From contig OZ024741.1 in assembly GCA_964016885.1 (NCBI GenBank), positions 310,062,001 through 310,126,000 of the forward strand: DNA of 64,000 nucleotides. Direction: 5' to 3'. Under the pieces are notes generated by a model. It was not told where the DNA came from. It did no database searches and saw only the letters and a program-made list of their open reading frames with translations. This document shows positions 5,309-53,765 of this stretch, piece by piece. The DNA comes from Eledone cirrhosa. Its lineage: Eukaryota. Made by a program: the position numbers and the translations under genes. The first letter of the stretch is position 1; the number at the start of each line of letters is the position of its first letter.

Positions 5309-5555
5309 GGTGTAGGTGTCACAACAAAAAAATACAGTCCACGCTGCTATGTGGTCGTGTAGGTAACACGGTAAAAAGCTGCCAGTCCACATTGTAAATG
5401 TGGTTGGTGTTAGGAAGGGCATCCAGCCGTAGAAAACCTGCCAGATAGTCCTATACGAGTGAGACAAGGTCACCCGACCAATCTTGCCTCAAGTGGAACA
5501 ATTCCCGTCTAACTCATGCTAGCGTGGAAGATAGACGTTAAACGATGATGATGAT
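5309..5555 (+). mobile_element. Isolated RTE-type 3' UTR/tail fragment; related copy at about 59375-59591
   Basis: Same pseudoknot-like module and AGGAAGGGCATCC hairpin as family A, a CATGCTAGCGTG terminal hairpin and a (GAT)n tail. Confidence 0.75.
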
Positions 5556-8700: not shown

Positions 8701-8992
8701 AACTCATAATATAGGTAACAAAAATCTTTTCCCCAAAATTAACGTTATTCTTTTCTCTTTCTCTTCCTTCCTTATAAATATTTAAATTTTCCAGTGTCTA
8801 AAATAACGTTTTTTCAGCCCTTTAATATACACATCATTTGCATACTGATATTAATAATTTTAAATATCTGACTTTTCTCCTCTCTTCCCTTCATTATCCA
8901 AGGATAACTTGAACCGTTAAGGTATATCATCCTTGGTCATGTCAAATATTTATAAAACATTTTGTATTTTATCTGATGATATTTTATCTGAT

Positions 8993-9338
8993 GGAGGCAC
9001 ATGGCTTAGTGGTTAGAGCATTGGCCTTGCAATCAAAAGGTTGTGAGTTCAATTCTCAGACCGGGTGATGTGTTGTTTCCTAGAGCAAGACACTTTATTT
9101 CACATTGCTCCAGTTTACTCAGCTGTAGAAATGAGATGATAGGGACTGGGGTCCATATCATTCCACTGCAAAGTGGTCGTGGAGGTGCCACAGCAAAAAA
9201 GCACCCAGCACTCACTGTAAATGAGGTTGGTGTTAGGAAGAGCATCCAGCTGTAGAAATCAAGCCAGAATCAGTTCCCGTCCCACCCTTGCAAGCAGGGA
9301 AAAAGCGGACGTAAAATGAAATGATGAATGATGATGAT
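8993..9338 (+). mobile_element. tRNA/CORE SINE (copy 2) inserted in the PLE right arm
   Basis: Same head, CORE and tail as 2424-2738; interrupts sequence that is continuous in the inverted left arm. Confidence 0.88.
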
Positions 9339-9438
9339 AGCATACCAACATTTTTGGTACCCTTGAAATATATATAATAGAATAAATATGGTTTTTCCAT
9401 TTATTTAATATCATTGTATATATATATATATATATATA

Positions 9439-10078
9439 GAAGTGGTTACACAACAGTTAGTTCACCTTAGCGGATCCTCAGCTCATAATTGACATGGTTA
9501 GATGGAACAGGAAGGACAACCGTATGAAGGCGCATGCGCAGAAACCATCACTTCACACAGGAAATACTAAAAAGCGTGCGAGAGGTGTAAGGGAGATAAC
9601 TGCGAAAGTCCGAAAAGTTTCTAGTTGATAAGAAAATTAGGATGTTGTGATTCAATCCGGAGCTTTGTAGTTATGTAAGAGGTGTTTCGAGACGTGTGGA
9701 CAACGTGTGAAGAATTCATTTCTCGTGTTTAGGCAATCACTATTGCATAATCTCTTTAGAATATTTATTAGTTCATCAATACATAGTCCACACGACGGAT
9801 TTCCCCTTGTGTATGGCTTGGACTTAGTGATGGCTTTCCATTGAATGGAGTAGTCTATACTTGAGTCCTTGAGGGACTATACATGGCTCGCGAATTTCAA
9901 GGATGAACGTCTGTCCGGGTACCTAAAGGTCGACTAGTGGTTCATGAAGCATTCCTTAAATCGGCCCTCCGCCATACCCACATAGGATTTGACCTCCTGT
10001 GGTTGATTTGGTCGGTTGGAAGTGACCACAGCTTCATAAATTACAGCTGTAATTTATGAAGCTGTGGTCACTTCCAAC
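9439..10078 (-). mobile_element. Second PLE 3' fragment (GIY-YIG end) with a 64-bp fold-back palindrome
   Basis: Minus-strand translation AVIYEAVVTS..KSYVGMAEGRFKE..NH*STF..IDYSIQWK..PY..CGLCIDE..LNTRNEFFTRCPH with stops; perfect palindrome at 10015-10078. Confidence 0.8.
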
Positions 10079-10411
10079 ATCATCATCATTGTTTAATGTC
10101 AATTTTCCATGTTTACATGGGGTAGACTGGTTGTAACTCTGAGGCTTGAAATGACAAGTGACCACCTTCTACTCATATGTTGTTGTTTGCTTGGTCTGTA
10201 TACCTGAATGCCTTTCTTATATATATATATATTATTGACGGTAAAATGTATGTATGTATGTATGTATGTATGTTTTCTTTCTCTTAATTTCGAGTATATT
10301 TTTTTGACCGGCCACCTTCCTGGTGGCAAGGTTGTAAAAGAAAAGAAATTGTCATCCCTTGAATCGCAATGTATCCCTTGTATGTATGTATGTATGTATG
10401 TATGTATGTAT

Positions 10412-10845
10412 GTCACCCTTTGTAGGAGTTTAGTCGCCAACGACCCGACCATGAGACAAGTTGTACTGGGATACATGTTACCAGTAGCACCAACTGGTGA
10501 CCTGACATAATCACCGGGAGAGTTGACCCTTAGAATTGTTCTTCTTTTTGGTAAATATCATCTTGGTTAAGAGAGTGGGACTGGCTTTGTGCAGTGCCTT
10601 TGCTCACTATAAAAGCTTCACGGCACAGGCATTGCTTTATATCTGGAGATCTCTCTGCACTTGTCGTCACATGGTACCATGGGCCCAGAACTATATGTCA
10701 ATAATTGTCACAAGTGTAGTGTTTGTACCAGAGTTTTCAAGTCGTTGACTGGACTAAAAAGTCACACTCGTTCAGCGCATCGGTAGGGGTTCTCCTACAT
10801 GGATATGAAGTAGTGGCCGTACTCGAAAAAGAGTTGGCAGCCACC
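10412..10845 (+). mobile_element. Rearranged copy of the non-autonomous element at 36691-37302
   Basis: 10510-10845 matches 36889-37302 with a deletion; about 10428-10510 is the reverse complement of 36691-36773; flanked by (TATG)n. Confidence 0.8.
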
Positions 10846-10859
10846 ATGTATGTATGTAT

Positions 10860-10990
10860 GTGAGTGGTGTGTGTTTGTATACATAAGTGTTGGTGTGTGT
10901 GTTTGTATACATAAGTGTTGGTGTGTGAGTGGTGTGTGTGTTTGTATACATAAGTGTTGGTGTGTGAGTGGCGTGTGTGTGTGTGCCGTG
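10860..10990. repeat. GT-rich minisatellite (unit contains GTGTGTTTGTATACATAAGTGTTG)
   Basis: Three recognisable tandem units. Confidence 0.8.
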
Positions 10991-11029
10991 AGTGTCAGTG
11001 TTTTTTTTTTTCTTTGACCATGCTGTAAA

Positions 11030-14000
11030 ATGGAGGGGTAAAGAGGGTCCTTGAGTCTAGTAAGACATCCTCTCTAGTGCTGGTGGCACAAATAAAAGCA
11101 CCCAGTCCATGCTATAAAGTGGCGCTGATGTTAGGAAGGGCATCCAACCAGTGTATCAATGCCAAAACAAGTATATAGGAACAACAAAATATGAAGACGT
11201 CGCATCTCAGAGTTGCAACACTTAATGTTGGCACTCTCAGAGGTAGATCTGCTGAAATAGCAGAGATGCTGGAGAGAAGGCATCTGGATGTGTGCTGCGT
11301 GCAAGAGGTGATATGGAGAGGTGCCTCTGCGAGTCTAGTCGTAGGCAAACATCTAAGCTATAAGCTTTTCTGGGTAGGTAAGGATGATGGGTTAGGGGGA
11401 GTAGGTATTTTCCTGGCTGAGAGATGGATCAATAAGACAATAGAGGTAGTTTGAGTTAGTAATCGAATAATTAAGCTTAGATTAGTTGTAGGCAGGAGAC
11501 TACTGACAATCATCTCTGCCTATGCTCCCCAAGCAGGCCTAGGCAAAGATGAGAAAGACTGCTTTTACGAGCAACTTTTACAAACAACCGCAATGACAGA
11601 GGACGGAGACATCATTATGCCAGCAGGGGACTTCAATGGTCATGTTGGACAGCTCCAGGATGATTACACTGGGGTACATGGTGGGCACGGTTACGGCTCA
11701 AGAAATGAAGGAGTGAGACTTCTTGAATTTTGTGATGCAAGTACACTGACTATTTGCAACACTAACTTCCAGAAACCTGCCAACCACCTAATAACCTACA
11801 AATCTGGCGAGCACATAAGCCAGATTGATTTCTTACTAGTTAGGCAGCAGGACAGGCAGATAGTGTCTAATACCAAGGCATACCCTGGGGAAGAATGTAC
11901 CCCACACCATAGGTTAGTCGTTAGTGATATCTCAGTAAGCAAGAGATGGAATGAGGTGTGGAGAAGAAAGGTCTGGAAGCTAAAAGACCTTTCACTAAAT
12001 TACAAATTTAGGAAAGCCCTCCTAGATGTGTATGACGAAAAAGACGATTTAGAGACGTATAACATAGATAATAACTGGAATTTCTTACGTGACAACTTAC
12101 TGCAGGCTACTGAAGAAACTTGTGGTTGGAGCAGAGCTCCAACCAGACAGAGAGTGACCTGGTGGTGGAACAGCACAGTAGATAAGGCCATTAGAGACAA
12201 AAGACTAGCATGGAAGGCTTGGAAAAAGGGTGGGAGTAGAGAAGGATATACAGCCGCTAAGAGAGAAGCTAGACGTCAGGTGTACTTAGCATGCAGGGAG
12301 GCTGAGAGTAGGAGGTTTGCCAATGTTCTGTGACGGGAAGATCAGAGGCGTGCGGAGTTCCACATTGCAAGGCAGTGTGTCATTGCAAATCAGGATGTTG
12401 TTGGAGATGAATGTGTCCGGAATGATGCCGGTGTACTTAGTGTCATAAATGATCAGAAAAAGGAAGCCTGGAAATGTCATTATGAGAGACTGATGAATGT
12501 GGAGAACGAATGGGAGCAAGAGAAATTACCCTCAGTAGATCCGACAGAGGGACCAGCTATTGAGATTGACGAATATAGGGTCCAAGAGGCGATTAAGGAA
12601 ATGAAAAATGGTATGGTTGCTGGACCATCGGGGATAGTTGCTGAGATGCTGAAGGCACCAGGAGACATAGGCACTAAACTGGTTGCACGCATCATCAATC
12701 AGGCTATATATGGTGGTGTCATACCCAAAGACTGGTGCAGCAGCATTCTCATAAATTGCTACAAAGGTAAAGGGGATGCTTTGGAGAGGAGCAATTATAG
12801 GGGTATAAAACTGATGGATCAGGTTATGAAAGTGGCAGAAAGGATATTAGCACAACTAATTAGAGAAAGGGTCAAACTAGTTTGGTTTTGTGTCTGGGAA
12901 GAGTACAACAGATGCCCTCTACTTGGTGAGACAATTGCAAGAGAGGTTCTTAGAGAAAAATAAGCCACTATACTTAGCCTTTGTTGACCTAGAGAAGGCC
13001 TTTGATAGGGTACCCCGATCTGTCATCTGGTGGTCCCTAAGGAAACTAGGTGTTGAGGAATGGCTTGGGAGGACAGTGCAAACTTTGTACAGAGGTACTG
13101 TCATTAAAGTCAGGGTAGGAATGGAGTTTAGTGAGGAATTCCAGATACAAGTAGGAGTACATCAAGGTTCGGTCCTCAGCCCGCTCTTGTTCATTACAGT
13201 CCTCCAAGGCATAACGGAGGAGTTTAAGACTGGCTGTCCATGGGAACTTCTCTATGCTGACGATCTGGTTCTTATAGCAGAATCAGTAGAGGAGCTAGAG
13301 AATAAATTCTGGCTATGGAAACAGCAGTTGGAAGCAAGAGGACTGAGAGTGAACCTAGCTAAGACAAAAGTGTTGATGAGTAGTAAAGTGGACAAAACTC
13401 TTGATTCCGTCAGGGAAATGGCCATGTTCGATATGCAGAAAAGGAACTGGCATAAATTCTATAAAATGCACACAATGCAGATCCTGGGTACACAAGAGAT
13501 GTAGTGGGATAGCAGGCAAACTCACAGGTAGGGAGAAATACGTATGCAGTAGATGTACAGGGAAATTAAACAGTAGAAGTTGCATTGATAGACACATTTT
13601 TCAAATGCAGGCAGGTGCTATAGAAGTGGTGGATAGCTTCCGGTACCTAGGAGATCAGATTAGCATGGGAGGGGGCTCTTCCGAGGCCATAGTATCTAGA
13701 ATAAGGACGGGTTGGATGAAGTTTAGGGAGCTGCTTCCTCTGCTGACGAAGAAGGGTTTCTCCCTGCGTATGAAAGGCCGGTTATATGATGCCTGTGTGA
13801 GGAGCGTGATGCTGCATGGTAGTGAGACATGGGCAGCAACTGCAGAGGATATGCAACGGCTGGAGAGAAATGAGACAAGCATGCTCCGTTGGATGTGCAA
13901 TGTCAATGTGCATGAACGACCCAGCATGAATGTGTTGAGAGAGAAACTGTATTTGAGAGGGATAGAATGTAGTGTGCGAGAGAGGAGACTGAGGTGGTAT

Positions 14001-14244
14001 GGACATGTGATGCGCCTGGAGGATGACTGATGGGTGAAGAAGTGCCAGGAAATGCCAGTTGAAGGAAGACGTGGTAGAGGTAGACCACAAAAAACATGGG
14101 CGGAGGTGGTGAGAACAGACCTCAGATCGCTGAAGCTCACGGTGGAGATGACGAAGGACGTGACAAGTGGAGAGATGCTGTGCTGAATAAGACCCGTCCC
14201 ACCCTTGCAAACAGGGAAAGCGGACGTAAAATGATGATGATGAT
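11030..14244 (+). mobile_element. RTE LINE family B, near full length, pseudogenised
   Basis: APE endonuclease motifs (TLNVGTL, CVQE, AYAPQ, GDFNGHVG, QIDF), RT with YADD, PHD-type finger; several stops and frameshifts; (GAT)n tail. Confidence 0.93.
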
Positions 14245-17200
14245 ATATATACTCATCATTATCATCTTTTTTATGTTGACTTTTCAATGTTAGGGACTTT
14301 TTTACAGCTGGGTGCCCTTCCCGACACTAACCTTTTTAGTCACTTTTTAGGACATGCAGAAATACAGTGTACCTATTCTAAATCAGATATTTCATGCATA
14401 TATGTGGTTCTCTAATCTGCTTATTCTCCAACCCCTGCCATTATGCAAAATGGTCGTAAAATGATCTGTGTGTGTTCCATGTTCATATTTACATAATATA
14501 TATAGAGATTTAGGCCTGGAGAGGGATGGGGCCACGGCTTAAAATGCCCAAGAAACGCTGTATATCAATATGGCGCCCCTATGACTAAATCACGAGTTAC
14601 AGGACCATACATATATAGGTTTACATATATAGGTTTACATATAGAGATAACATCTGATGTGAACCATACATTTCTGTAATTCAAAATGTGTTAGTTATGT
14701 CAGTGATGTACAACCCTTTTCATAAGGTATTCTGCAGAATTTATGAATCACCAAATATAAATTTACTTTTAATTGCACTATGTCATGCATTAGGACATAA
14801 ATCCTGATGTGGACCACCTAATCCTTGGTATAGACCACTGGAGTCCACTTTATGTTTCACTGATTTTGTTGGGAAAAATCCATAAATCATTCAGTTATCT
14901 AATCTTATTATTGGAACCATAAACTGAAGGAGTATCATGTACTTAATTTCTGAAACTCCCTGTCTGTTATTATATCAAAACAATTGGCTTGTGTTTTCTA
15001 GCTGTTGTTGTTTTGAGGTTTGCAGTCAGATCTTCTAAAAGTAAATTAATGGCTTGGAATTGATAGATGATTGAAGGCTAAGCATCAATTCACAGGTTTG
15101 ACATAGATTTAGATATATTGAGTATGTCAGTTTGCATTGAACTCTATGATTTGGTGCTCATAGATGTAGTTATGCTAACATTACTATGGAGCATGTTGTT
15201 GGAACAGGTTTTGAATGAGGCTTTTGTTTGTAGTGCACAGAATTCCTAAAGGGTTTCTCTTTAAATAGAAATCTTTCAACATAACTTGATATAAGAATAT
15301 TTTATTAAGTTGTTACAAATACTATTGTAATAATGAATTTTAGTAAATCCCTTCAAATTCTTCATAAATTCAAATACTGTAATTCATATAAATATGGTAA
15401 TGAAGGGTTAAAGAAGGAATACTTCAGTATACATCTTATCATGTGTATCTGGTTTTGAATAAGTACATCATATCTTTTCATGTCGTAAGAAGCAATTAAG
15501 AGTTAATGCCAGGAAGGGCATCTGACCATGAAACTGCTTGGAAAAGGATTTCATGATTAGTATTATTATTTTTGTGTAATTGTCATGAAGCCCTTTCTCT
15601 TATGTTTGTTTAAATCGTTAACTTCAACATCTGAAGTAGAACATAGTCCAGTAGTGAAATATTTAACAACACTGAAAGTAAAATTTGGGCTGGACTAGGT
15701 TTGACTATGTGCTATTTCCGATGTTGAATTTGATGATTTAAACAAGGTTAAGATAGATATTTGTTTTATATTTCATAAAAGAGTTAATCATAGGTATGGC
15801 TGTGTGGTTAAGATGTTCAGTTTGCAGCTACATGGTTTCAGTTTCAGTCCCACTGTATGGTACCATGGGAAATATCTTTTACTGTAACTTCTAGCTGACC
15901 AGTGCCCTGTGAGTAAAGTGTGCTCGGTGGAAATTGATGAAAGCACATGTGTGCGCACACATACACACACATACTTATACACTAATCGTTTTAAGGCCAT
16001 TTTCCAAGCTAAAGCAGAAGTTAGGCATGCAGGCCCCACAACAAGCTTCATAATCTTTATGGGGATCTTTTTGAGGCAATGTTTTATGGCTAGTTGTTCT
16101 TGGTGCTGCCCTTTTAGTCGTTTTTTACAACATGCAAGAATATGGTGTACATAATCTAAACCTAATGTGCACAGCATGGATGTGTGTATATACAAGAGTG
16201 CATGTGTGTTTGTCCAAGCATTAATACTGACATCAAGTTAGCCAGTGATGTTTATGTCCTATTGATCAGTGGTTGGATATGTGATGCTTAGTGGAATATA
16301 GTACCTTAAATTAAAAACAAGGGTTGGCATCAGGAAGGACATCTGGTTATAGAATACTGCCTTAAGGTTTGTCCAACCCATGCCAGCATAGAAATAGTGG
16401 ATATAAAAAAGGAAAACAATCATATTGTCCATTGATTGATAAGGCATTTTATTGAATTCAATTAAATTGATTGTAATTGAAATAACATTAAAAATGTCAA
16501 TATGATGGGGGGTAGATGATAGAATTGGTAGAACATTCAACAAAATACTTTGTAGTGTTTGTTTACATCCCTTTATGTTCTGAGTTCAAACCCTGCCCAG
16601 TTCCACATTGACTTTAACTCTTTCTCTGCAGATAATATAAGTACCTGTCAATAAAACAAGTCTGGAGGTTGATGTAATTGATTGTACTTTAGCAGGTGGT
16701 GTCCCAACATAGCCACAGTCCAATGACTAAAAGTGATGGAGCCTCTTAGGGATAGCTGCCAAATCTTCCCTCAAACTACACCTTACTGTCTTAAAAAAGT
16801 GAATGACACATTAGGTAATATAGTTGTAGATACTCTTAAAAAAGGGGTAAAGCATTTTTGATGACAGTGCTCCTTGTTGAAGGTTGACGTAAGGCCCCCA
16901 AAATAGCATAGTAAAATTGATTCTTAGTTATTATAACTTTAGTTTCTGGCAACTCTAACTATATTCTGTTACTAGTTTCAGCCGTTAGGCAGAGGCCATG
17001 CTGGAACATTGTAAATGTTTATTTTGTAAGTTTACCTCCAAATTATACTACTGTTAGTTTTTAGACTTTATAACTTTTAGTCGCCACTTTTAAAATTGGA
17101 TTCTTTTGGTTTAAAAATCTTTCTCGTTTGTAAACACTCAAAGGTCAACAGTTAGAGGAATTATCAAGTATTTGTTTGTGCGTTAAACAAATTAGTTATG

Positions 17201-21952: not shown

Positions 21953-23114
21953 CATAGCTGAATCTATAGTAGAACTAGAGAATAAATTCCAAACTTGGAA
22001 GCAGGGACTAGAAAGAAAGGGTCTCAAAGTCAACATGACAAAGACTAAGACCCTTGTAAGTAGACGAGAAAACAGAACCCAGATCCCCTCAGGGAAATGG
22101 CCTTGCTCAGTATGTAGGAAAGGTGTAGGTAGGAACTCCATTCTCTGCCCCAAATGCAAACAATGGGTACACAAGAGATGTAGCGGGATCTCAGGAAGCT
22201 TAATTAAGAATGTAGGCTTCACATGCAGCAGCTGTGCTGAGACAGCAAGCAGCAAACAGCCACAGGAAACAAGTACCACCAATCTCTGGGAGGGCTCTGT
22301 AGAAACAGTAGACAGCTTCTGCTACCTAGGTGACCGAATTAGCAGCGGAGGTGGGTGTTCAGAAAGTACAATAACTAGGGTAAGAACGGGATGGAAGAAG
22401 TTTAGGGAACTACTACCACTGCTAGCTGCAAAAGGCTTCTCCCTCAGAATGAAAGGCAGACTGTATGATGCGTGTATCCGAACAGCAATGTTGCATGGTA
22501 GTGAGACCTGGGCGCTGAAGGTGGAAGACTTACGTAGATTAGAGAGAAACGAAGCCTGCATGCTCCGATGGATGTGTAACAGTAATATACGTGAACGACA
22601 AAGCATAAATGAATTGAGAGACTGAGCATAAGAGGAATCAAATGCTGTGTGCAGGAGAAGTTGATGGAAACCGCGGAGTGGGGAGACCCAAGATGACCTG
22701 GGATGAGGTGATAAAAGCCGACCTTACCCAATTACACCTCTCAAAGGCAATGACACGCGACCGTGACTTCTGGCGTCACGCAGTAATACAGAGTACCCGA
22801 CCTCCCATGGGTACAAGCTGAAGCATATAGACAATGTGCCCCCACACTCCCCACTGCAAGGTGGTCGTGGAGGTGCCATGACAAAAAAGCACCCAGCCCA
22901 CACTGTAAAGTGGACGTGTAGGCGCCACGAAAAAGCACCCAGCACTCACTGTAAATGAGGTTGGTGTTAGGAAGGGCATCCAGCTGTAGAAATCAAGCCA
23001 GATCAGTTCCTGTATGAGCAAGGCATGGTCAGCCGACCAGACACTGCCCACAACAGGACAACCCGTCTAACCCATGCTAGCGTGGAAGAACGGACGTAAA
23101 ACGGTGATGATGAT
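21953..23114 (+). mobile_element. RTE LINE family C, 5'-truncated with internal deletions
   Basis: Near-identical to 43140-44322; ORF 22035-22625; (GAT)n tail. Confidence 0.92.
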
Positions 23115-23364
23115 GGTTCCTTTGAGGTGGGTTTGGTTTCACTGTGTTATAACTTATTACATCTCTGCTAAAAAGACATGTATACATTCATAACTGCATA
23201 CATAAATATATATGTAATAATTTTCTCAGTTATATAAGTGTTGTGTGGTGTGTATGTATATGAAGTATATGGTGTGTAAGGATCATTCCCTCTACCCAGC
23301 TCTATGATGTATAATATATATTTTCTTGATCAAGTACATATGTAATTTTTATTTTGTTGCCCAG

Positions 23365-30422: not shown

Positions 30423-30527
30423 GTATATATATATATGTATATATATATATGTATATATATATATGTATATATATATATGTATATATATATATATGTATAT
30501 ATATATGATGGCATATATATATATATG
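29234..30527. repeat. Irregular (TA)n-TG array, about 1.3 kb
   Basis: TA runs of variable length punctuated by TG; almost no C on the + strand. Confidence 0.95.
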
Positions 30528-30535
30528 ATGGCATA

Positions 30536-32682
30536 CTTGCCATCACCGACACTGATAAGAAGGTAGCTTGGAAGTGTCACTATGAAAGGCTACTAAATGA
30601 GGAGAATAAATGGGAGAAAGACAGTCTCCCCCATATCGACCCGATAGAGGGACCAGCAGTGTTAGTCGAGGGGAGTATAATAAGTAAGGCAATCAAGGAT
30701 ATGAAGACTGGTAAGGCGGCTGGGCCTTCGGAAATAGTTGCTGAGATGCTGAAGGCATCTGGCACGGTGGGACACACCATGGTCACCCGCATAGTTAACC
30801 AAGTCGTACAGAATGGGGTTGTTCCGAAGGACTGGCATAGCAGCATCATCGTTAACTGTTATAAGGGTAAAGGAGACGCCCTAGATAGGAGTAACTATAG
30901 AGGCATTAAATTAATCGACCAGGTCATGAAGGTCACGGAAAAAGTAATAGCGCAACTAATCAGAGAGAGAATTGATCTAGATGAAATGCAGTTCGGGTTT
31001 GTGTCAGGCAAAAGCACCACAGACGCTCTTTTCATAGTACGACAACTACAGGAGAAGTACCTAGCTAAAGGTAAACCCCTCTACTTAGCTTTTGTCGACC
31101 TGGAGAAAGCCTTCGACAGAGTCCCCCGCTCCATTATCTGGTGGGCTCTTAGAAAACTAGGCGTTGACGAATGGCTTGTGAGGGCTATACAAGCCATGTA
31201 TAAAGAAACAGTCAGCAAGGTTAGAATTAACAACGAATATAGTGAAGAGTTTAGCGTAAAAGTTGGCGTCCATCAGGGCTCTGTTCTCAGCCCCCTACTA
31301 TTTATTATTGCCCTTCAGGCTATAACAGAGGAGTTCAAGACAGGCTGCCCATGGGAACTCCTATACGCAGACGACCTGACACTCATAGCGGAATCAATGG
31401 CCGAGCTAGAGAAGAAATTCCAAACATGGAAGCACGGCCTAGAGTCAAAAGGACTTAAAATTAACCTGGCTAAGACCAAAGTTCTAGTTTGTAGGAAAGA
31501 AAACAAGGCGGCGGTCCCTTCTGGGAAATGGTCGTGCTCGGTATGTAGGAAAGGCGTAGGTAGAAACTCCATCTTATGTCCTAAATGCAAAGTATGGGTG
31601 CATAAAAGATGTAGTGGGATCACAGGTAAGCTAACTAAGAACATAGACTTTACATGTGGCCGATGTTCTGGTGCAATAAGTAGCAGCAAGTGCCCACAAA
31701 ATACTAGCTCTTTCAAGTGCGCAGAGGGTTCTATAGAAATAGTGGACAGCTTCCGTTACCTGGGCGATAAAATCAGCAGTGGGGGAGGGTGCTCTGAAAG
31801 TACTGTAGCTAGAGTCAGAACTGGTTGGAAAAAGTTCAGAGAGCTTATACCACTATTAGCTGCTAAAGGGTTCTCCCTAAAAATGAAAGGCAGGTTGTAC
31901 GATGCCTGCATACGAACAGCAATGTTGCATGGTAGTGAGACCTGGGCATTGTGTGCAGAGGATATACGTAGACTAGAGAGGAACGAAGCTTGCATGCTCC
32001 GCTGGATGTGTAACAGTAATATACGTGAACGGCAAAGCATAAACGAACTAAGGAAAAAATTAGAGATAAGAGGGATCAGATGTTGTTTACTCGAGAGAAG
32101 GCTGCGTTGGTATGGACACGTGATGCGCATGAAAGTCGATAGCTGTATTACAAAGTGCAGGGCAATAAAGATAGACGGTAGCCACGGAATAGGCAGACCT
32201 AGAAAAACATGGGATGAGCTGATAAACTCCGACCTCATACACTTACACCTCTCCAAGACAATGTCACTGGACCGTGACCTTTGGCGGTACTCAGTAACAG
32301 AGAAGACCCGCCTTGCCAGTAGGCATCTCTAACAAACTACACCCCGTCCCGCCACCACCCCCACCCCATCCACACCACCCCGTTCCATGTAAAGTTATGT
32401 TGGTGCCGCGCCATCCAGGCCGAAACAAACGAGATCGTGTAGGTGTCACGACAAAAAAACACACAGTCCACGCTGTAATGTGGCCGTGTAGGCAACACGG
32501 TAAAAACCTCCCAGACCCACACTGTAAATGTGGTTGGTGTTAGGAAGGGCATCCAACTGTAGAAAATCTGCCAGACAGTCCTATGCGAGCAAGACAATCA
32601 CTCTTGCCTCAAGTGGGACTACCCCCGTCCAAACCCATGCAAGCGTGGAACACGGACGTTAAACGTTGATGATGATGATGAT
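30536..32682 (+). mobile_element. RTE LINE family A, 5'-truncated, uninterrupted RT-PHD-C-terminal ORF (30659-32332)
   Basis: 557-aa ORF with full RT motifs; 3' UTR and (GAT)n tail. Confidence 0.95.
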
Positions 32683-36690
<4,008 letters not shown>

Positions 36691-37302
36691 TTATGTCAGG
36701 TCACCAGTTGGTGCTACTGGTAACATGTATTCCAGTACAACCTGTCTCATGGTCGGGTCGTTGGCGACTAAACTGGCAACCCCACCAAGGTTTCTTGGTG
36801 AGGAGGGTGGCTTTGGACATCCTGCAGGACTAAAAACAAAACCTGTCAAAAGGCAAAGGGGCTCTTAAGAGTCAATAGCCATCCAAAATCACCGGGAGAG
36901 ATGACCCCTTAGCCTTTGTCAAGGCAGAATTCTAGGAGAAGGAAAACTCTGATATAACACCTGCAACCCTGATGGTATCCAATGATGTTGAATTATTCTT
37001 CTTTTTGGTAAATATCATCTTGGTTAAGAGAGTGGGACTGGCTTTGTGCAGTGCCTTTGCTCACTATAAAAGCTTCACAGCACAGGCATTGCTTTATATC
37101 TGGAGATCTCTCTGCACTTGTCGCCACATGGTACCATGGGCCCAGCACTATGTGTCAATAATTGTCACAGGTGTAGTGTTTGTACCAGAGTTTTCAAGTC
37201 GCTGGCTGGACTAAAAAGTCACACTCGTTCAGCGCATTGGTAGGGGTTCTCCTACATGGATATAGAGCAGTGGCCGTACTCGAAAACGAGTTGGCAGCCA
37301 CC
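36691..37302 (+). mobile_element. Non-autonomous LINE-derived element: RTE-like 5' UTR joined to the last codons of a C2H2 finger and a 3' end
   Basis: CTAGGAGAAGGAAAACTCTGA (recalled as an RTE 5' UTR motif); 37172-37237 reads [22 protein letters not shown]; second copy at 10412-10845. Confidence 0.7.
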
Positions 37303-38410
<1,108 letters not shown>

Positions 38411-38992
38411 AAAAACAAATAACGAAACGAAATTAAATTTTGTTTCGTTTGTAACTCACTTTTGTATGACTGACGCTTAAACAATTAAGTTAAAAATGTA
38501 CATCCACATATGTATACTGAAATACTAGTATGCATATGAATACACACACGTGTACATATGTAGATGTACCGAGTTTTTCACTGGACACTTTACTGTCAGT
38601 GTCCAGCTATTCTGTATGTAAACACACAGACAAACCGGTTTTTAGAGTCATACTGGTTTTCGAGGAAACACCTTTCCTCTATTCTCCAGAAAGCCAGACA
38701 AGGAATATTGGACTAGTTTCGATGTTGTTACATCTCATCAGCAATATTTACCTATCTTCCGGCCTTTCTAGAGAATCGTAAAAGCACATATCGTTATATG
38801 CTTTTTCTATGAAAATTAGTAGTGGGCAGACTAATTTGCATAGAGCGTGAGTACGTACCGGTTCAGCGGAGACGATAAAAACAAATAACGAAACGAAATT
38901 AAATTTCGTTTCGTTTGTAACTCACTTTTGTATGACTGACGCTTAAACAATTAAGTTAAAAATGTACATCCACATATGTATACTGAAATACT
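38411..38992 (-). mobile_element. Retrozyme-like non-coding element: 466-bp unit plus 116-bp terminal redundancy
   Basis: 38411-38526 is repeated at 38877-38992 (one mismatch seen); internal hammerhead and several hairpins; no credible ORF. Confidence 0.75.
38704..38748 (-). ncRNA. Canonical minimal type I hammerhead ribozyme
   Basis: AATATTG-CTGATGA-GATGT AACA ACATC-GAAA-CTAG-TC^CAATATT: 7-bp stem I, 5-bp stem II, palindromic stem III, GUC triplet. Confidence 0.92.
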
Positions 38993-38995
38993 GAA

Positions 38996-40665
<1,670 letters not shown>

Positions 40666-40669
40666 TTAA

Positions 40670-43600
40670 TTTTACTGATGTAGTATTAACTTGGATATTT
40701 ACCATGCGACCCTCAGTTCCTACCTCACAATTTCCCTCCCCCCACCCCCACACACCACCTAGTCTATTCGACCAATCAAACCTAGCATGCCATTTCCACT
40801 GCTGCTGCTACTACCTGCCTAACTAACTCTCTCCTCCTCTGGCGCATCCCAACACACCCTGCCATTACCCCACCACCACTGTTCTTCTAACCCTCAATTT
40901 TCCCACCGTTATGCATGGATGAGCTGGGAATACACGAGCAACTCTGAATCAATAGATGAAATATGAATCTGCGAGCTACCAAGCACCCACGTGAAGCGCC
41001 AACCCAGAGACCCTCCCCTACGAGTGTCGAAAAATGCCCAAAACTCCGAGTTGGTACCATCAATGTAGGCTCAATGAAAGGAAGAGCAGGAGAAATCGTA
41101 GAAATGCTAGAGCGAAAGGAAGTTGATGTATGCTGTGTGCAAGAGACTAGATGGAGAGGAGGGTCTGCTAGAGTCCTTGTGGGAAAAAGCCAGTGCTACA
41201 AATTTTTCTGGGTGGGAAATGACGATGGGATGGGTGGTGTAGGTATACTATTAGCTGACAAGTGGGTAGATAAAGTAATCTCAGTGTACAGGGTAAATGC
41301 AAGAATCATTAAACTCAGACTAGTCCTGAATAAGACAATTACCACAATAATATCAGCTTACGCACCCCAATCGGGGCTGCCAGACGAACTTATGGATAGG
41401 TTTTACGAGTCCCTAATACACACTACTGCTCTAACAGACGACAAGGACTTCCTAATCATTGCAGGAGATTTTAACGGACACGTAGGTAAACACTGCGACG
41501 GCTTCAATAGAGTACATGGAGGCCATGGAGTTGGCACAAGGAATGAGGAAGGATTCAGACTTCTAGAATTCTGCGACGCCAATGACATGTCGATATGTAA
41601 CACAAACTTTAAAAAACCCGACAACCACCTGATCACCTATAGATCAGGGGAGCACTCTAGTCAGTTAGATTTTATCCTCATCAGAGGACGTGACAGATGG
41701 ACGGTCGTAAACACAAAAGCCTTCCCTAGTGAGGAATGTACATCCCAACATAGCTTAGTTGTCAGCGACCTCACGGTCAGAACTAGACGAGCCCTGAAAC
41801 AGAGGCCAACCTGGAGAAGAAAGATCTGGAAGCTGAAAGTCCCCTCAACCAGTAACAGATTTAAAGATATTTTACTCAACGCCTACGACAGTAAAGAAGA
41901 ACAGATAGAGACATTTAACGTAGAAGAGAACTGGGAGTTCCTAAAAAATAACTTACTAGAGGCGACGGATGAGGTTTGTGGCTGGAGTAAGACCTCAAGC
42001 AGGAGGAGAGTGACTTGGTGGTGGAACAATAAGGTAGATGAAGCAGTCAAGGCCAAGAGACAGGCATGGAAAGAATGGAAGAACGGGGGGAGCAGGGTAC
42101 ATTACATAGAGACCAAGAGGGAAGCTAGGCGACAAGTATACTTAGCTAGGAGGGAAGCAGAGGATAGAAAATTCAAGCATGTTTTACAACGTGAGGACCA
42201 GAAACAGGAGGTATTCAAGATTGCGAGGCAGTGTGTCAGAGATAGTTGTGATGTCATTGGAGAGAAGTGTATCCGGAATGATAAAGGTGAGCTTGCCCTC
42301 ACAAGTGCTGAGAAGAAAGATGCATGGAAGAGTCATTATGATAGATTACTAAATGAGGAGAATGCATGGGAAGAAGAGACCCTACCCCACGTAGACCCTA
42401 TAGAGGGACCAGCAGTACAAGTCAGCGGCAGCGTAGTAAGTAAGGCAATCAGAGATATGAAGATAGGGAAGGCAACCGGTCCATCGGGTATAGCTGCCGA
42501 GATGCTGAAGGCATCTGGGTCTGTAGGTCACACTATAACCACACGTATCGTTAACCAGGTAATACTAGAGGGGGCCATACCAAAAGATTGGTGCAGTAGC
42601 ATCATTGTCTACTGCTACAAAGGTAAAGGCGATGCACTAGATAGAGGAAACTATAGAGGTATAAAGTTGATGGACCAGGTCATGAAAGTAACAGAAAGAG
42701 TTATAGCACAGCTGATTAGGGACCGGGTGAATATAGACGAGATGCAATTTGGGTTTGTACCAGGGAAAGGCACCACTGATGCCCTCTTCCTTGTGAGGCA
42801 ATTACAGGAAAAGTACCTAGCTAAAAGTAAGCCACTCTACTTGGCATTTGTCGACCTTGAGAAAGCCTTTGACAGAGTTCCACGTGCAGTAATCTGGTGG
42901 GCTCTTAGAAAACTAGGAGTAGATGAATGGCTTGTGAAAGCGGTACAAGCCATGTATAGAGGAGCAGTCAGCAAAGTTAGGATTGGCAATGAGTATAGCG
43001 AGGAATTTAGCGTACAGGTTGGGGTCCACCAGGGCTCTGTTCTTAGCCCTCTCCTGTTCATCATAGTCCTGCAGGCAATAACGGAGGAGTTTAAGACCGG
43101 ATGCCCATGGGAACTCCTGTATGCTGATGACCTCGCACTCATAGCTGAATCTATGGTAGAACTAGAGAATAAATTCCAAACCTGGAAGCAGGGACTAGAG
43201 AGAAAGGGCCTCAAAGTCAACATGACAAAGACTAAGGTCCTTATAAGTAGACGAGAAAACAGAACCCAGATCCCCTCAGGGAAATGGCCTTGCTCAGTAT
43301 GTAGGAAAGGTGTAGGTAGGAACTCCATTCTCTGCCCCAAATGCAAACAATGGGTACACAAGAGATGTAGCGGGATCTCAGGAAGCTTAATTAAGAATGT
43401 AGGATTCACATGCAGCAGCTGTGATGAAACAGCAAGCAAACAGCCACAGGAAACAAGTACCACCAATCTCTGGGAGGGCTCTGTAGAAACAGTAGACAGC
43501 TTCTGCTACCTAGGTGACCGAATTAGCAACGGAGGTGGGTGCTCAGAAAGTACAATAACTAGGGTAAGAACGGGATGGAAGAAGTTTAGGGAACTACTAC

Positions 43601-44322
43601 CACTGCTAGCTGCAAAAGGCTTCTCCCTCAGAATGAAAGGCAGACTGTATGATGCGTGTATCCGAACAGCGATGTTGCATGGTAGTGAGACCTGGGCGCT
43701 GAAGGTGGAAGACTTACGTAGATTAGAGAGAAACGAAGCCTGCATGCTCCGATGGATGTGTAACAGTAATATACGTGAACGACAAAGCATAAAGGAATTG
43801 AGAGAGAGACTGAGCATAAGAGGAATCAAATGCTGCGTGCAGGAGAGGCGGTTACGCTGGTATGGACATGTGATGCGTATGAAGGATGACAGCTGCATAA
43901 AAAGGTGCAGAGCACTAGAAGTTGATGGAAACCGCGGAGTGGGGAGACCCAAGATGACTTGGGATGAGGTGATAAAAGCCGACCTTACCCAACTACACCT
44001 CTCAAAGTCAATGACACACGACCGTGACTTCTGGCGTCACGCAGTAATACAGGGTACCCGACCTCCCATGGGTACATGCTGAAGCATATACACCCAGCCC
44101 ACACTGTAAAGTGGACGTGTAGGTGCCACGAAAAAGCACCCAGCACTCACTGTAAATGAGGTTGGTGTTAGGAAGGGCATCCAGCTGTAGAAATCAAGCC
44201 AGATCAGTTCCTGTATGAGCAAGGCATGGTCAGCCGACCAGACACTGCACACAACAGGACAACCCGTCTAACCCATGCTAGCGTGGAAGAACGGACGTAA
44301 AACGGTGATGATGATGATGATG
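40670..44322 (+). mobile_element. RTE LINE family C, apparently full length
   Basis: C-rich 5' UTR of about 290 nt, one long ORF, structured 3' UTR, (GAT)n tail; TA arrays on both sides. Confidence 0.95.
40963..44082 (+). CDS. APE endonuclease - reverse transcriptase polyprotein with internal PHD-type zinc finger (1039 aa)
   Basis: TINVGSM, CVQETRW, SAYAPQ, GDFNGHVG, QLDF, SQHSLV (EN); YADD at 43120; C4HC3 at 43291-43422; no stops. Confidence 0.95.
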   Translation: MNLRATKHPREAPTQRPSPTSVEKCPKLRVGTINVGSMKGRAGEIVEMLERKEVDVCCVQETRWRGGSARVLVGKSQCYKFFWVGNDDGMGGVGILLADKWVDKVISVYRVNARIIKLRLVLNKTITTIISAYAPQSGLPDELMDRFYESLIHTTALTDDKDFLIIAGDFNGHVGKHCDGFNRVHGGHGVGTRNEEGFRLLEFCDANDMSICNTNFKKPDNHLITYRSGEHSSQLDFILIRGRDRWTVVNTKAFPSEECTSQHSLVVSDLTVRTRRALKQRPTWRRKIWKLKVPSTSNRFKDILLNAYDSKEEQIETFNVEENWEFLKNNLLEATDEVCGWSKTSSRRRVTWWWNNKVDEAVKAKRQAWKEWKNGGSRVHYIETKREARRQVYLARREAEDRKFKHVLQREDQKQEVFKIARQCVRDSCDVIGEKCIRNDKGELALTSAEKKDAWKSHYDRLLNEENAWEEETLPHVDPIEGPAVQVSGSVVSKAIRDMKIGKATGPSGIAAEMLKASGSVGHTITTRIVNQVILEGAIPKDWCSSIIVYCYKGKGDALDRGNYRGIKLMDQVMKVTERVIAQLIRDRVNIDEMQFGFVPGKGTTDALFLVRQLQEKYLAKSKPLYLAFVDLEKAFDRVPRAVIWWALRKLGVDEWLVKAVQAMYRGAVSKVRIGNEYSEEFSVQVGVHQGSVLSPLLFIIVLQAITEEFKTGCPWELLYADDLALIAESMVELENKFQTWKQGLERKGLKVNMTKTKVLISRRENRTQIPSGKWPCSVCRKGVGRNSILCPKCKQWVHKRCSGISGSLIKNVGFTCSSCDETASKQPQETSTTNLWEGSVETVDSFCYLGDRISNGGGCSESTITRVRTGWKKFRELLPLLAAKGFSLRMKGRLYDACIRTAMLHGSETWALKVEDLRRLERNEACMLRWMCNSNIRERQSIKELRERLSIRGIKCCVQERRLRWYGHVMRMKDDSCIKRCRALEVDGNRGVGRPKMTWDEVIKADLTQLHLSKSMTHDRDFWRHAVIQGTRPPMGTC

Positions 44323-47493: not shown

Positions 47494-47838
47494 GGAGGCA
47501 CATGGCTTAGTGGTCAGAGCACTGGCCTTGCAATCGAAAGGTTGTGAGTTCAATTCTCAGACCGGGTGATGTGTTGTTTCCTTGAGCAAGACACTTTATT
47601 TCACATTGCTCCAGTTTACTCAGCTGTAGAAATGAGATGATAGAGACTGGGGTCCATATCATTCCACTGCAAAGTGGTCTTGGAGGTGCCACGGCAAAAA
47701 AGCCAGCACTCACTGTAAATGAGGTTAGTGTTAGGAAGGGCATCCAGCTGTAGAAATCAAGCCACAATCAGTTCCTGTCCCACCCTTGCAATCAGGGAAA
47801 AGCGGACGTAAAATGAAATGATGAATGATGATGATGAT
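47494..47838 (+). mobile_element. tRNA/CORE SINE (copy 3)
   Basis: Near-identical to 8993-9338. Confidence 0.88.
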
Positions 47839-48174: not shown

Positions 48175-50210
48175 ATCATCATCATCATCATTTTACGTCC
48201 GCTTTTCCCTGCTTGCAAGGGTGGGACGGGTCTTATTCAGCACAGCATCTCTCCACTCGTCACGGTCCCTCGTCATCTCCACCGTGAGCTTCAATGATCT
48301 GAGGTCTGTTCTCACCACCTCTGCCCATGTTTTTCGTGGTCTACCTCTACCACGTCTTCCCTCAACTGGCATTTCCTGGCACTTCTTCACCCATCGGTCA
48401 TCCTCCATGCGCATCACATGTCCATACCACCTCAGTCTCCTCTCCCGTACACTACATTCTATCCCTCTCAGACACAGTTTCTCTCTCAACACATTTATGC
48501 TGGGTCGTTCACGCACATTTACACTGCACATCCAACGGAGCATGCTTGCCTCATTTCTCTCCAGCCGTCGCATATCCTCTGCGGTTGCTGCCCATGTCTC
48601 ACTACCATGCAGCATCGCGCTCCTCACACAGGCATCATACAACCGGCCTTTCGTACGCAGGGAGAAACCCTTCTTCGTCAACAGAGGAAGCAGCTCCCTA
48701 AACTTCTTCCAACCCGTCCTTATTCTAGATACTATGGCCTCGGAACACCCTCCTCCCATGCTAATCTGATCTCCTAGGTACCGGAAGCTATCCACCACTT
48801 CTATAGCGCCTTCTCGCATTTGAAAAATGTGTCTATCAGTGCGACTTCTACTGTCTAATTTCCCTGTACATCTACTGCATACATATTTCTCCCTACCTGT
48901 TAGTTTGCCTGCTATCCCGCTACATCTCTTGTGTACCCAGGACCTGCATTGTGTGCATTTTATAGAATTTATGCCAGTTCCTTTTCTGCATATCGAACAT
49001 GGCCATTTCCCTGACGGAATCAGGGTTTTGTCCTCTTTTCTACTCATCAACACTTTTGTCTTAGCTAGATTTACTCTCAGTCCTCTTGCTTCCAACTGCT
49101 GTTTCCATAGCCGGAATTTATTCTCTAGCTCCTCTACTGATTCTGCCATAAGAGCCAGATCGTCAGCATAGAGAAGTTCCCATGGACAGCCAGTCTTAAA
49201 CTCCTCTGTTATGGCTTGGAGGACTATAATGAACAAGAGCGGGCTGAGGACCGAACCCTGATGTACTCCTACTTGTATCTGGAATTCCTCACTAAACTCC
49301 ATTCCTACCCTGACTTTACTGAGAGTACCTCTGTACAAAGTTTGCACTGTCCTCACAAGCCATTCCTCAACACCCAGCTTCCTTAGGGACCACCAGATGA
49401 CAGATCGGGGTACCCTATCAAAGGCCTTCTCTAGGTCAACAAAGGCTAAGTATAGTGGCTTATTCTTCTCTAAGAACCTCTCTTGCATTTGTCTCACCAA
49501 GAAGAGGGCATCTGTTGTACTCTTCCCAGGCACAAAACCAAACTGCATCTCATCTAGTTTGACCCTTTCTCTAATTAGTTGTGCTAAAATCCTTTCTGCC
49601 ACTTTCATAACCTGATCTATCAGCTTTATACCCCTATAATTGCTCCTCTCCAAAGCATTCCCTTTACCTTTGTAGCAATTTATGAGAATACTGCTGCACC
49701 AGTCTTTGGGTATGACACCACCATATATAGCCTGATTGATGATGCGTGCAACCAGTTTAGTGCCTACGTCCCCTGATGCCTTCAGCATCTCAGCAACTAT
49801 TCCCGATGGTCCGGCCGCCTTACCATTTTTCATTTCCCTAATCGCCTCTTGGAGCCTATATTCGTCAATCTCAATAGCTGGTCCCTCTGTCGGATCTACC
49901 AAGGGTAATTTCTCTCTCTCCCATTCGTTCTCCACATTCATCAGTCTCTCATAATGACATTTCCAGGCCTCCTTTTTCTGGTCATTCGTGACACTAAGTA
50001 CACCGGCATCATCCCGGACACATTTATCACCAACAACATCCTGATTTGCATTGACACACTACCTTGCAATGTGGAACACCGCACGTCTCTGATCTTCCCG
50101 TCGCAGAACATTGGCAAACTTCCTACTCTCTGCCTCCCTGCGTGCTAAGTACACCTGACGTCTAGCTTCTCTCTTAGTGGCTGTATATTCTTCCCTACTC
50201 CCACCCTCTT
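48175..50210 (-). mobile_element. RTE LINE family B, 5'-truncated, uninterrupted ORF 48193-49941
   Basis: 582-aa RT-PHD ORF whose stop lies immediately before the tail; homologous to 12225-14244. Confidence 0.95.
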
Positions 50211-50215
50211 TTTTT

Positions 50216-51583: not shown

Positions 51584-53416
51584 ACGTTTAACGTCCGTGT
51601 TCCACGCTTGCATGGGTTTGGACGGGGGTTTTCCCACTTGAGGCAAGAGTGGTTGTCTTGCTCGCACAGGGCCGTCTGGCGGGTTTTCTACAGTTGGATG
51701 CCCTTCCTAACACCAACCACATTTACAGTGGGGGTCTGGGAGGTTTTTACCGTGTTGCCTACACGGCCACATTACAGCGTGGACTGTGTGTATTTTTGTC
51801 GCGACACCTACAAGATCTCATTTGTTTCGGCCTGGATGGCGCGGCACCAACATAACTTTACATAGAACGGGGTGGTGTGGATGGGGTGGTGGTGGTGGCG
51901 GGACGGGCTGTATTTTGTTAGAGATGCCTACTGGCAAGGCGGGTCTTCTCTGTTACTGAGTACCGCCAAAGGTCTCGGTCCAGTGACATTGTCTTGGAGA
52001 GGTGTAAGTGTGTGAGGTCGGAGCTTATCAGCTCGTACCAGGTTTTTCTAGGTCTGCCTATTCCGTGGCTACCGTCTATCTTTATTGCCCTGCACTTTGT
52101 TATACAGCTATCGACTTTCATGCGCATCACGTGTCCATACCAACGTAGCCTTCTCTCGAGTAAACAACATCTGATCCCTCTTATCTCTAATTTTTTCCTT
52201 AGTTTGTTTATGCTTTGCCGTTCACGTATATTACTGTTACACATCCAGCGGAGCATGCAAGCTTCGTTCCTCTCTAGTCTGCGTATATCCTCTGCACACA
52301 ATGCCCAGGTCTCACTACCATGCAACATTGCTGTTCGTATGCAGGCATCGTACAACCTGCCTTTCATTTTTAGGGAGAACCCTTTAGCAGCTAATAGTGG
52401 TATAAGCTCTCTGAACTTTTTCCAACCAGTTCTGACTCTAGCTACAGTACTTTCAGAGCACCCTCCCCCACTGCTGATTTTATCGCCCAGGTAACGGAAG
52501 CTGTCCACTATTTCTATAGAACCCTCTGCGCAATTGAAAGAGCTAGTATTTTGTGGGCACTTGCTGCTACTTATTGCACCAGAACACCGGCCACATGTAA
52601 AATCTATGTTCTTAGTTAGCTTACCTGTGATCCCACTACATCTTTTATGCACCCATACTTTGCATTTAGGACATAAAATGGAGTTTCTACCTACGCCTTT
52701 CCTACACACCGAGCACGACCATTTCCCAGAAGGGACCGCCGCCTTGTTTTCTTTCCTACAAACTAGAACTTTGGTCTTAGCCAGGTTAATTTTAAGTCCT
52801 TTTGACTCTAGGCCGTGCTTCCATGTTTGGAATTTCTTCTCTAGCTCGGCCATTGATTCCGCTATGAGTGACAGGTCGTCTGCGTATAGGAGTTCCCATG
52901 GGCAGCCTGTCTTGAACTCCTCTGTTATAGCCTGAAGGGCAATAATAAATAGTAGGGGGCTGAGAACAGAGCCCTGATGGACGCCAACTTTTACGCTAAA
53001 CTCTTCACTATATTCGTTGTTAATTCTAACCTTGCTGACTGTTTCTTTATACATGGCTTGTATAGCCCTCACAAGCCATTCGTCAACGCCTAGTTTTCTA
53101 AGAGCCCACCAGATAATGGAGCGGGGGACTCTGTCGAAGGCTTTCTCCAAGTCGACAAAAGCTAAGTAGAGGGGTTTACCTTTAGCTAGGTACTTCTCCT
53201 GTAGTTGTCGTACTATGAAAAGAGCGTCTGTGGTGCTTTTGCCTGACACAAACACGAACTGCATTTCATCTAGGTCAATTCTCTCTTTGATTAGTTGCGC
53301 TATTACTTTTTCCGTGACCTTCATGACCTGGTCGATTAATTTAATGCCTCTATAGTTACTCCTATCTAGGGCATCTCCTTTACCCTTATAACAGTTAACG
53401 ATGATGCTGCTATGCC
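51553..53416 (-). mobile_element. RTE LINE family A, 5'-truncated, reverse orientation
   Basis: ORF 51918-53324(-), 468 aa; 3' UTR and tail. Confidence 0.95.
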
Positions 53417-53765
53417 GGGGGTTTTCCCACTTGAGGCAAGAGTGGTTGTCTTGCTCGCATAGGACTGTCTGGCAGGTTTTCTACAGTTGGATGCCCTTCC
53501 TAACACCAACCGCATTTACAGTGTGGGGCTGGGAGGTTTTTACCGTGTTGCCTACACGGCCACATTACAGCGTGGACTGTCTGGCAGGTTTTCTACAGCT
53601 GGATGCCCTTCCTAACACCAACCACATTTACAGTGTGGGACTGGGACGTTTTTACCGTGTTGCCTACACGGTCATATTACAGCGTGGACTGTGTGTTTTT
53701 TTTTTTTCGTGACACCTACACGATCTCATTTGTTTCGGCCTGGATTTTGTGGCACCAACATAACT
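53417..53765 (-). mobile_element. Tailless, internally duplicated family A 3' UTR fused to the 5' break of the preceding copy
   Basis: About 53463-53580 is repeated at about 53574-53692; no terminal hairpin or (GAT)n. Confidence 0.85.

Follow-up and report, generated by a model that had tools for sequence, protein, structure and literature searches.

Retention of both a 5' and a 3' piece is typical of RTE retrotransposons (PMC5786205), and bipartite RTE SINEs and RTE twisters are both already known. The available text of that study leaves to speculation what purpose is served by the LINE 5'-UTR piece kept in RTE-derived SINEs (PMC5786205). In the RTE element Perere-3, a twister is followed by a stem ending CATCCCGTAGAAAA (PMC8501958, Supplementary Table 4), along with a TTAGCG/CGCTAA match, and the loop of that stem is complementary to a downstream stretch (PMC8501958). 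No non-circular forms of twister were found, according to the accessible part of PMC10085705. In vertebrate R2 elements, a pseudoknot is bound by the non-LTR protein, and compensatory rescue has been shown (PMC12180492). The original prediction for the locus described here was of a chain of pseudoknots and hairpins in retroelement 3' ends, put forward as not known to have been described before. In the literature searched, which is that outside Repbase, patents and subscription papers, we found no report of tandem pseudoknots in RTE UTRs, of a move to the 3' UTR or of a twister relic.

The window (the whole stretch of 64,000 nucleotides that was analysed) is animal DNA rich in TA microsatellites and non-LTR retrotransposons, in a repeat style reminiscent of octopus genomes, and includes three LINE families, designated A, C and D, that have one type of endonuclease-RT-PHD (EN-RT-PHD) frame in common. 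Family A is represented by a 5'-truncated, RTE-like ORF (30525..32332, plus strand; RT, PHD finger and C-terminal part) that starts after a TA microsatellite, matches Pfam RVT_1 (E 1e-32) as well as PHD, and is 77% identical in amino acids to the full-length family C ORF (A and C share 77-79% of residues). The family C LINE (40667..44321, plus strand) has a full frame of 1040 codons at 40960-44082 with Exo_endo_phos and RVT_1 matches; no second long non-repeat ORF lies upstream of this frame, which places an APE endonuclease and then the RT in a single ORF. Family D (11000-14245, with a second copy at 48175-50211) shares 60-76% of residues with A and C, varying by stretch. In a tree, a single clade (100/99) unites A, C and D and leaves out the outside elements L156 and L168, with weak branching inside it (A+D at 88/83). 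We call these families RTE-like from their single EN-RT frame, their hairpin and (GAT)n tail and their bipartite SINE partners, a label given with an RT tree that holds no named RTE proteins and 120 listed homologs that bear no clade names. The SINE, termed B (8993..9345, plus strand; other copies at 2424-2739 and 47494-47835), consists of a tRNA head, a body that is CORE-like by eye against the motif in PMC5786205, a C-like module and a D-like tail. Its head (9002-9059) scores 28.5 bits, slightly below the gathering threshold of 29, and ARAGORN reports none; with a tRNA head, a LINE 5'-UTR piece that matches the D 5' UTR, and a LINE 3' tail, the element has the composition of a bipartite RTE SINE.

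Other features of the window were noted alongside these elements. Between the A tail and the C element lies an 8-kb TA-rich tract with islands (32684-40666), and the best 150 of 243 rows from an Rfam search over the whole window are almost all TA-repeat artefacts. In a non-repeat island of this tract, 38688-38759 (minus strand) matches Hammerhead_HH9 at 38.9 bits (E 2.5e-6), below the gathering threshold of 52. Its core looks intact and its stem III is minimal, and we take it to resemble Penelope-type minimal hammerheads. A near-perfect palindrome of ~65 nt (10013-10080) adjoins an old tail copy, and an open frame at 2876-3595 with a weak HTH_23 match (E 2.5e-5) is perhaps a piece of a DNA transposon.

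The predicted chain lies in the 3' UTR of the RTE-like family A LINE, with all of its parts on the plus strand. A C-rich linker (32333..32434) leads from the stop codon to a module built from a tandem unit of ~49 nt (repeat periods 46 and 48), each unit comprising one type I and one type II knot. In the first unit, PK1 (32435..32462) is a predicted type I H-type pseudoknot with a nested TCGTG/CACGA and a crossing GTGT/ACAC stem, and PK2 (32463..32483) is a predicted type II pseudoknot with a nested CAG/CTG and a crossing CCAC/GTGG stem. The second unit comprises PK3 (type I; 32484..32509) and PK4 (type II; 32512..32533), the latter sitting where outside RTE 5' UTRs have a twister 3' half. There follows a conserved core (32533..32572; hairpin 32533-32557), made of a GTTG(G)/CCRRC stem closing AGGAAGGGCAT, an A-rich linker and TGCC. 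Folding adds a long hairpin absent from the original prediction (32577..32620), which families A and C have and the SINE is missing, with one A-U to G-C swap between A and C in a by-eye comparison. The region ends in an RTE-type two-stem terminal hairpin and (GAT)n tail (32626..32682; hairpin 32626-32658). All stems that the original prediction had written out are found in the sequence at PK1-PK4, the core and the terminal hairpins; its third knot nevertheless fails on comparison, the nested stem of PK3 being sound but its 3-bp AGG/CCT crossing stem weak, unconserved and disrupted in two copies, 5355-5403 and 53622-53671.

The variants claimed for family C and the SINE (GGTGC/GCACC, CTCA/TGAG and CCCTTGC/GCAGGG) are likewise real in the sequence, and unit number does vary, from a single unit in D through one and a half in B and two in A to either one and a half or two and a half in C. 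The long chain of family C is found in the 3' UTR at 22843..23115 (plus strand; partial II, I-II, I-II, core, tail), with more units at 22843-22960 than at 44089-44160. Elsewhere, an A-family 3' UTR on the minus strand (53416-53765), joined to ORF fragments of both orientations, contains a 112-nt tandem duplication of unit plus core. The stretch 11018-11074, which precedes the D module, holds a second type II-like 3' half and another G-rich/C-rich paired stretch, and reads from other copies show an 89-nt tandem unit at the corresponding region.

Taken singly, the sequences are weak evidence for a knot chain. The four compact knots that A has in one chain were reached by 2 of 100 dinucleotide shuffles, compared with 10 of 100 for C and, for the shorter chains, 28 of 100 for B and 69 of 100 for D (C, B and D not significant), and the nested-only fold of 32430-32575 has a z of -0.19. 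In the type I alignment (17 rows), 84% of cells are paired versus 75.5% when shuffled, two-sided cells number 13 versus 4.6 (0/500), and pairs with two-sided change number 3 versus 2.3 (199/500); in type II (15 distinct rows), the crossing stem is 88% paired with one A-U/U-A swap, and pairs with two-sided change number 1 versus 0.4 (185/500), the nested stem being undercounted through MAFFT offsets in six rows and all shuffle tests being inflated by related rows. In type I, the nested stem has a clean U-A/C-G swap at its base and the crossing stem a clean C-G/U-A swap, and genome reads provide further GGAG/CTCC versions of the crossing stem; six A-U cells at one type I crossing pair stem from PK3, where adjacent pairs are broken. 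In all, crossing-stem covariation amounts to about 3-4 independent events. At several of the defects in the D copy, many or most reads, which mix families, show pair-forming letters. In the terminal hairpin, 7 of 11 pairs have changes on both sides over 18 rows, a number matched by none of 500 shuffles. The chain had been called covarying, which holds strongly for the terminal hairpin and extends to both crossing stems in the form of compensatory changes, but the events are few and PK3 is unconserved. PK1, PK2 and PK4 are moderately supported by these comparisons and PK3 is not, and there is moderate support for the module as a real, conserved and structured RNA domain, its fold being a predicted one.

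The 13-mer AGGAAGGGCATCC, expected from the original prediction to recur roughly 20 times, has 19 matches in the window at up to one mismatch (16 of them exact), whereas 0.03 would be expected. A scan with the core pattern gave 133 metagenome loci (in a collection estimated at 140,000 stretches) and 25 genome-contig loci. An outer stem of at least 4 bp is kept in 12/14 window, 18/19 genome-contig and 112/126 metagenome matches versus 0/20 chance loci, with five prokaryotic chance loci (L159, L166, L176, L178 and L180) excluded from the core counts. Changes in this stem are one-sided only, and the core displays no clear covariation in an alignment whose 3' strand is fixed by the search pattern and whose TTG-type rows are off register. 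The proposed inner TGTT/GGCA stem holds in most families, but here too every change is one-sided, and in the commonest outside SINE the stem is disrupted (the middle pair is kept in 3% of 126 matches). The core loop letters can pair instead with a downstream or an upstream stretch: of 89 copies of that commonest SINE, 85% have a 5' CCTTC that complements the loop, and other families have GCY directly behind the A-rich linker. The TGCC after this linker is a possible fifth knot, competing with the inner stem. Searching freely downstream for a stretch to pair with the core loop gave no better result than at chance loci, and a positional test for GCY gave 14/14 and 16/17, but also 55% at chance loci. 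As the type I and II knots are absent from most outside families, only the core is widely shared. Among the outside loci, a very abundant headless bipartite element (L027-L155; e.g. L079, 900-1160) begins in most copies at about the same GCCTTCAG start, and its 5' CCTTC, by complementarity, would be an upstream partner of the core loop, replacing the downstream one.

The chain had been assigned to LINE and SINE 3' ends; it does occur there, but the description is incomplete, as the module is also found in a LINE 5' UTR. In family D, a I-II-core module (11075..11165, plus strand; 65/97 columns identical to A) stops roughly 25 nt short of the ATG (11191) that opens the endonuclease-domain frame, and the 3' end is a bare tail hairpin with no module (14192..14245, plus strand). 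In family C, the module is confined to the 3' UTR (44089-44202), with none in the ORF or in the 375 nt before the endonuclease domain of the one copy at 40667..44321, although another could lie further upstream than this copy reaches. Both LINEs with known ends therefore carry the module at one end only, 5' in D and 3' in C, a pattern that covers these two families, the 5' end of A being outside the window. In SINE B, which has no coding region, the module lies mid-body beside the tail and is C-like (85/92), while the tail is D-like (43/46), suggesting that parts have been exchanged between families. Among the outside rows listed, an RTE-like ORF follows the core at 208-215 nt in L156, L168 and L174, the first of which has a short D-type tail, and L161, L170 and L171 have core plus tail with no ORF in between. 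Given this 5' core in outside elements and an A/C/D clade with L156 and L168 outside it, the 5' position is likely ancestral. The family A frame ends KTRLASR (KTRLASRHL*), where the D frame continues through the tail hairpin as KTRPTLASR; this frame end fits an old tail kept in place with the module and a new tail added behind, and 32303..32332 (plus strand), within the A ORF end, is probably the remnant of the ancestral, D-type tail.

About 20 contigs in bacterial or archaeal assemblies (L156-L180) were found to contain eukaryote-type LINE/SINE sequence, L156 with a whole RTE-like frame; such loci have LINE frames or (GAT)n tails and probably represent eukaryotic contamination. Viral contigs, which were used as a negative control, yielded 26 motif matches, all attributable to chance, and no RT relative.

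Outside relatives also connect the module to a ribozyme. In 6 of 17 outside loci picked by hand, the core is immediately preceded by an Rfam twister-P1 match (best match 63.9 bits, E 3e-12; all six below the gathering threshold of 67.2). The type II knot fills the position of the twister 3' half and has the topology of P4 plus T1, as in the example alignment CCAGTCCCA-CTG-TAAAT-GG. With chosen ends, comparison of type II with the twister 3' half gave p 0.0005-0.04 in 8/8 units and that of two type I controls p 0.7-0.9, the six twister targets including L054, which was taken by eye and has no Rfam match. With ends fixed by anchors, all six window copies score 18.5-24 (p 0.008-0.09, four of the six under 0.05), compared with one of 18 chance loci at 18.5 or above (it reached 19) and 4/32 comparison rows with p under 0.05; L161 and L177 score 21 and 20. 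We regard this anchored similarity as modest and suggestive. The twister models of Rfam have no match in 32300-32690, 8900-11300 or 40660-41100, and these regional scans assigned the module to no family. P2, T2 and the cleavage-site loop are structural elements of the twister, and in alignments to outside twister halves all three are missing from type II. On sequence comparison, type II probably descends from a twister, and the knot is likely a relic of the twister P4/T1 knot and not itself a twister. A permuted, still-active twister was rejected as a candidate, since needed parts are missing from the window unit. The ORF-less element L161 (640-760) has a twister-like end, GGAGGG, together with a CTCC/GGAG type II knot and a half that resembles type I, and is a possible intermediate form between twister and type II.

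The reading that we favour, and to which we give about an even chance, is that the module is an RTE-like 5'-UTR RNA element, relocated in A and C, whose predicted knot chain would serve together with the tail hairpin in template selection by the EN-RT protein. Ancestrally, the order would have been twister ribozyme, core, ORF and tail. In this lineage the twister would have lost P2, T2 and the cleavage site, its P4/T1 knot persisting as type II; this knot would have joined a type I knot, after which the ~49-nt units were duplicated. A bipartite module-plus-tail piece may then have landed behind the A/C ancestor, or been template-switched onto it, to give a new 3' end. One module copy per RNA would be needed, whatever its position, so that the module would act at RNA-protein assembly or TPRT. 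Its presence in non-coding RNAs, at either LINE end and once per element where both ends are known, with variation that keeps the pairs, argues for an RNA signal, rather than a promoter or translation, as the shared function. To such a signal being read at assembly or priming we give about an even chance, and more than one role is possible, for example in translation in the D leader. The part of the original prediction that foresaw a modular RNA domain common to LINE and SINE is supported, and of the three functions it offered (stability, translation and RT recognition) the last ranks best, but the analogy to a poly(A) substitute is not borne out. A further idea, that a twister scaffold has been reused without catalysis as the repeatable block of a portable RNA tag, needed by RTE proteins once per template at either end, we put forward tentatively and think somewhat doubtful.

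Several other functions could be envisaged. An xrRNA-like block to 5'-3' decay, shielding uncapped RNA after ribozyme cleavage, would suit the ancestral module position directly behind a 5' cleavage site, and in A and C it would leave a stable module-plus-tail fragment of ~250 nt as a ready non-autonomous template; of 9 A-type copies, 4 are short and begin at about 32393-32523, and 5 are at least 1.3 kb. These copies are few, however, with some from an older subfamily, and 5' truncation is common in general; moreover, a tRNA-headed SINE would need such protection less, and Rfam has no match in 32300-32690. We consider both the block and the fragment that it would leave unlikely, if still worth weighing. 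(RT stalling at the knots as a source of the short copies was set aside, sharp 5' ends being too few to judge.) A translation element, which would drive cap-independent initiation when in the 5' UTR and, when in the 3' UTR, replace poly(A) or act as an enhancer, appears improbable. It would accord with the D module ending so close to the ATG, with (GAT)n rather than poly(A) at element ends, and with the reporter translation supported by cleaved Perere-3 twister leaders (PMC8501958). Yet the paired module is kept in the tRNA-headed SINE and in ORF-less bipartite elements, and D and L156 have no 3' knots of this kind. Tobamoviruses, on which the original prediction drew, have an upstream pseudoknot domain in which compact H-type knots follow one another close to a 3' end that is not polyadenylated. 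As an origin this parallel does not survive, as the module is 5'-UTR in D and in outside elements, behind a twister, and is kept in a SINE with no ORF, and the Rfam search of 32300-32690 returned neither a tobamovirus family nor any other (best E 3.5, with E values up to 10 considered).

The module could also be neutral cargo, a SINE-like piece behind a master LINE with pairings that are remnants of the twister and of tandem duplication. Elements do insert into one another's tails (the SINE at 47494 comes after an A tail ending 47467), the knot statistics of single sequences are weak, PK3 has degenerated, and the number of units varies in a copy whose ORF is intact. Cargo of this sort would be at odds with the lack of a module at the usual 5' position in C, with the wide retention of the core stem relative to chance loci, and with the pair-forming letters in reads, families mixed, at several defects of the D copy; we judge it rather improbable. 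Finally, the module could act at the DNA level, for example as an internal promoter or a site for factor binding, a speculation made by Kojima 2018 for conserved RTE 5'-UTR pieces. In favour of this, distant families have the 13-mer without any change of letters, a conservation that is partly forced by the search pattern. The surrounding variation retains U-G/U-A and G-C pairs, however, and a promoter at the 3' end would be unable to drive C, leaving this the least credible of the possibilities and a very remote one.

Under the favoured reading of a template-selection signal, the locus is a natural experiment, in which three sister LINEs carry the module at opposite ends and a SINE mixes their parts, and a concrete structure makes the idea of template recognition directly testable. 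A defined cis structure would also be of practical value, since RTE UTRs are being optimised empirically for gene insertion (PMC13708176). Reuse of the P4/T1 knot, if true, would explain why RTE-derived SINEs retain the 5'-UTR piece, and LINEs with the tag moved to the 3' UTR would make each short truncated copy a potential template. Should twister descent hold, type II would provide a natural example of a ribozyme fold reused without catalysis.

Compared with described systems, the window module differs from the tobamovirus domain in origin, has no sequence match to it and is present in untranslated SINEs and 5' UTRs. The pseudoknot-hinge-stem of the vertebrate R2 3' UTR, a knot beside a terminal stem that acts as a template-recognition signal (PMC12180492), is a likely functional parallel, but R2 belongs to another clade (RLE type) and has a single knot, whereas the window module is 5'-UTR-derived and repeated. 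The RTE 3'-terminal hairpin in the available text of PMC6007223, with compensatory changes, common to LINE and SINE and followed by a short repeat, is of the same kind as the tail in the window, whose terminal hairpin is thus an already known RTE type. With the twister of Perere-3 (Liu 2021, PMC8501958) the link is positional, outside relatives with the same core having twister-P1 in the same place. Type II resembles a twister in its 3-bp P4-like stem, its UAAA linker and a CC-rich loop whose partner is a GG stretch on the 3' side; unlike a twister, the window unit is without the 5' half, P2, loop AAGC (T2) and GAGGG, and it is duplicated, relocated to the 3' UTR and predicted to be non-cleaving.

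There is a further match to the bipartite RTE SINEs and non-autonomous RTEs (MAR1, WALLSI2, Bov-tA and SINE1-1_EBu; PMC5786205, PMC7245038), which have the same order of head, body, 5' piece and tail, and in which, as here, module and tail are swapped between families. The core is absent from the Ceph-SINE sequences compared, the supplement files searched for MetaSINE (PMC4824008), where alignments are given as figures, gave no match, and the 13-mer is absent from the text-searchable supplement of PMC5786205. By eye, the 5'-UTR pieces of Bov-A2, EbuSINE2, SINE2-1_EC, CoeSINE4 and MonoRep87A (PMC5786205 S1) can be drawn as H-type pseudoknots with stem letters changed, so that knots of this sort could be a general feature of RTE leaders. 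What sets the window apart from the elements of Kojima 2018 and 2020 is that the bipartite piece forms the 3' UTR of LINEs whose long frames are intact, and that this piece, for which the accessible text of those studies proposes no pseudoknot (PMC5786205, PMC7245038), is here a predicted tandem chain of knots.
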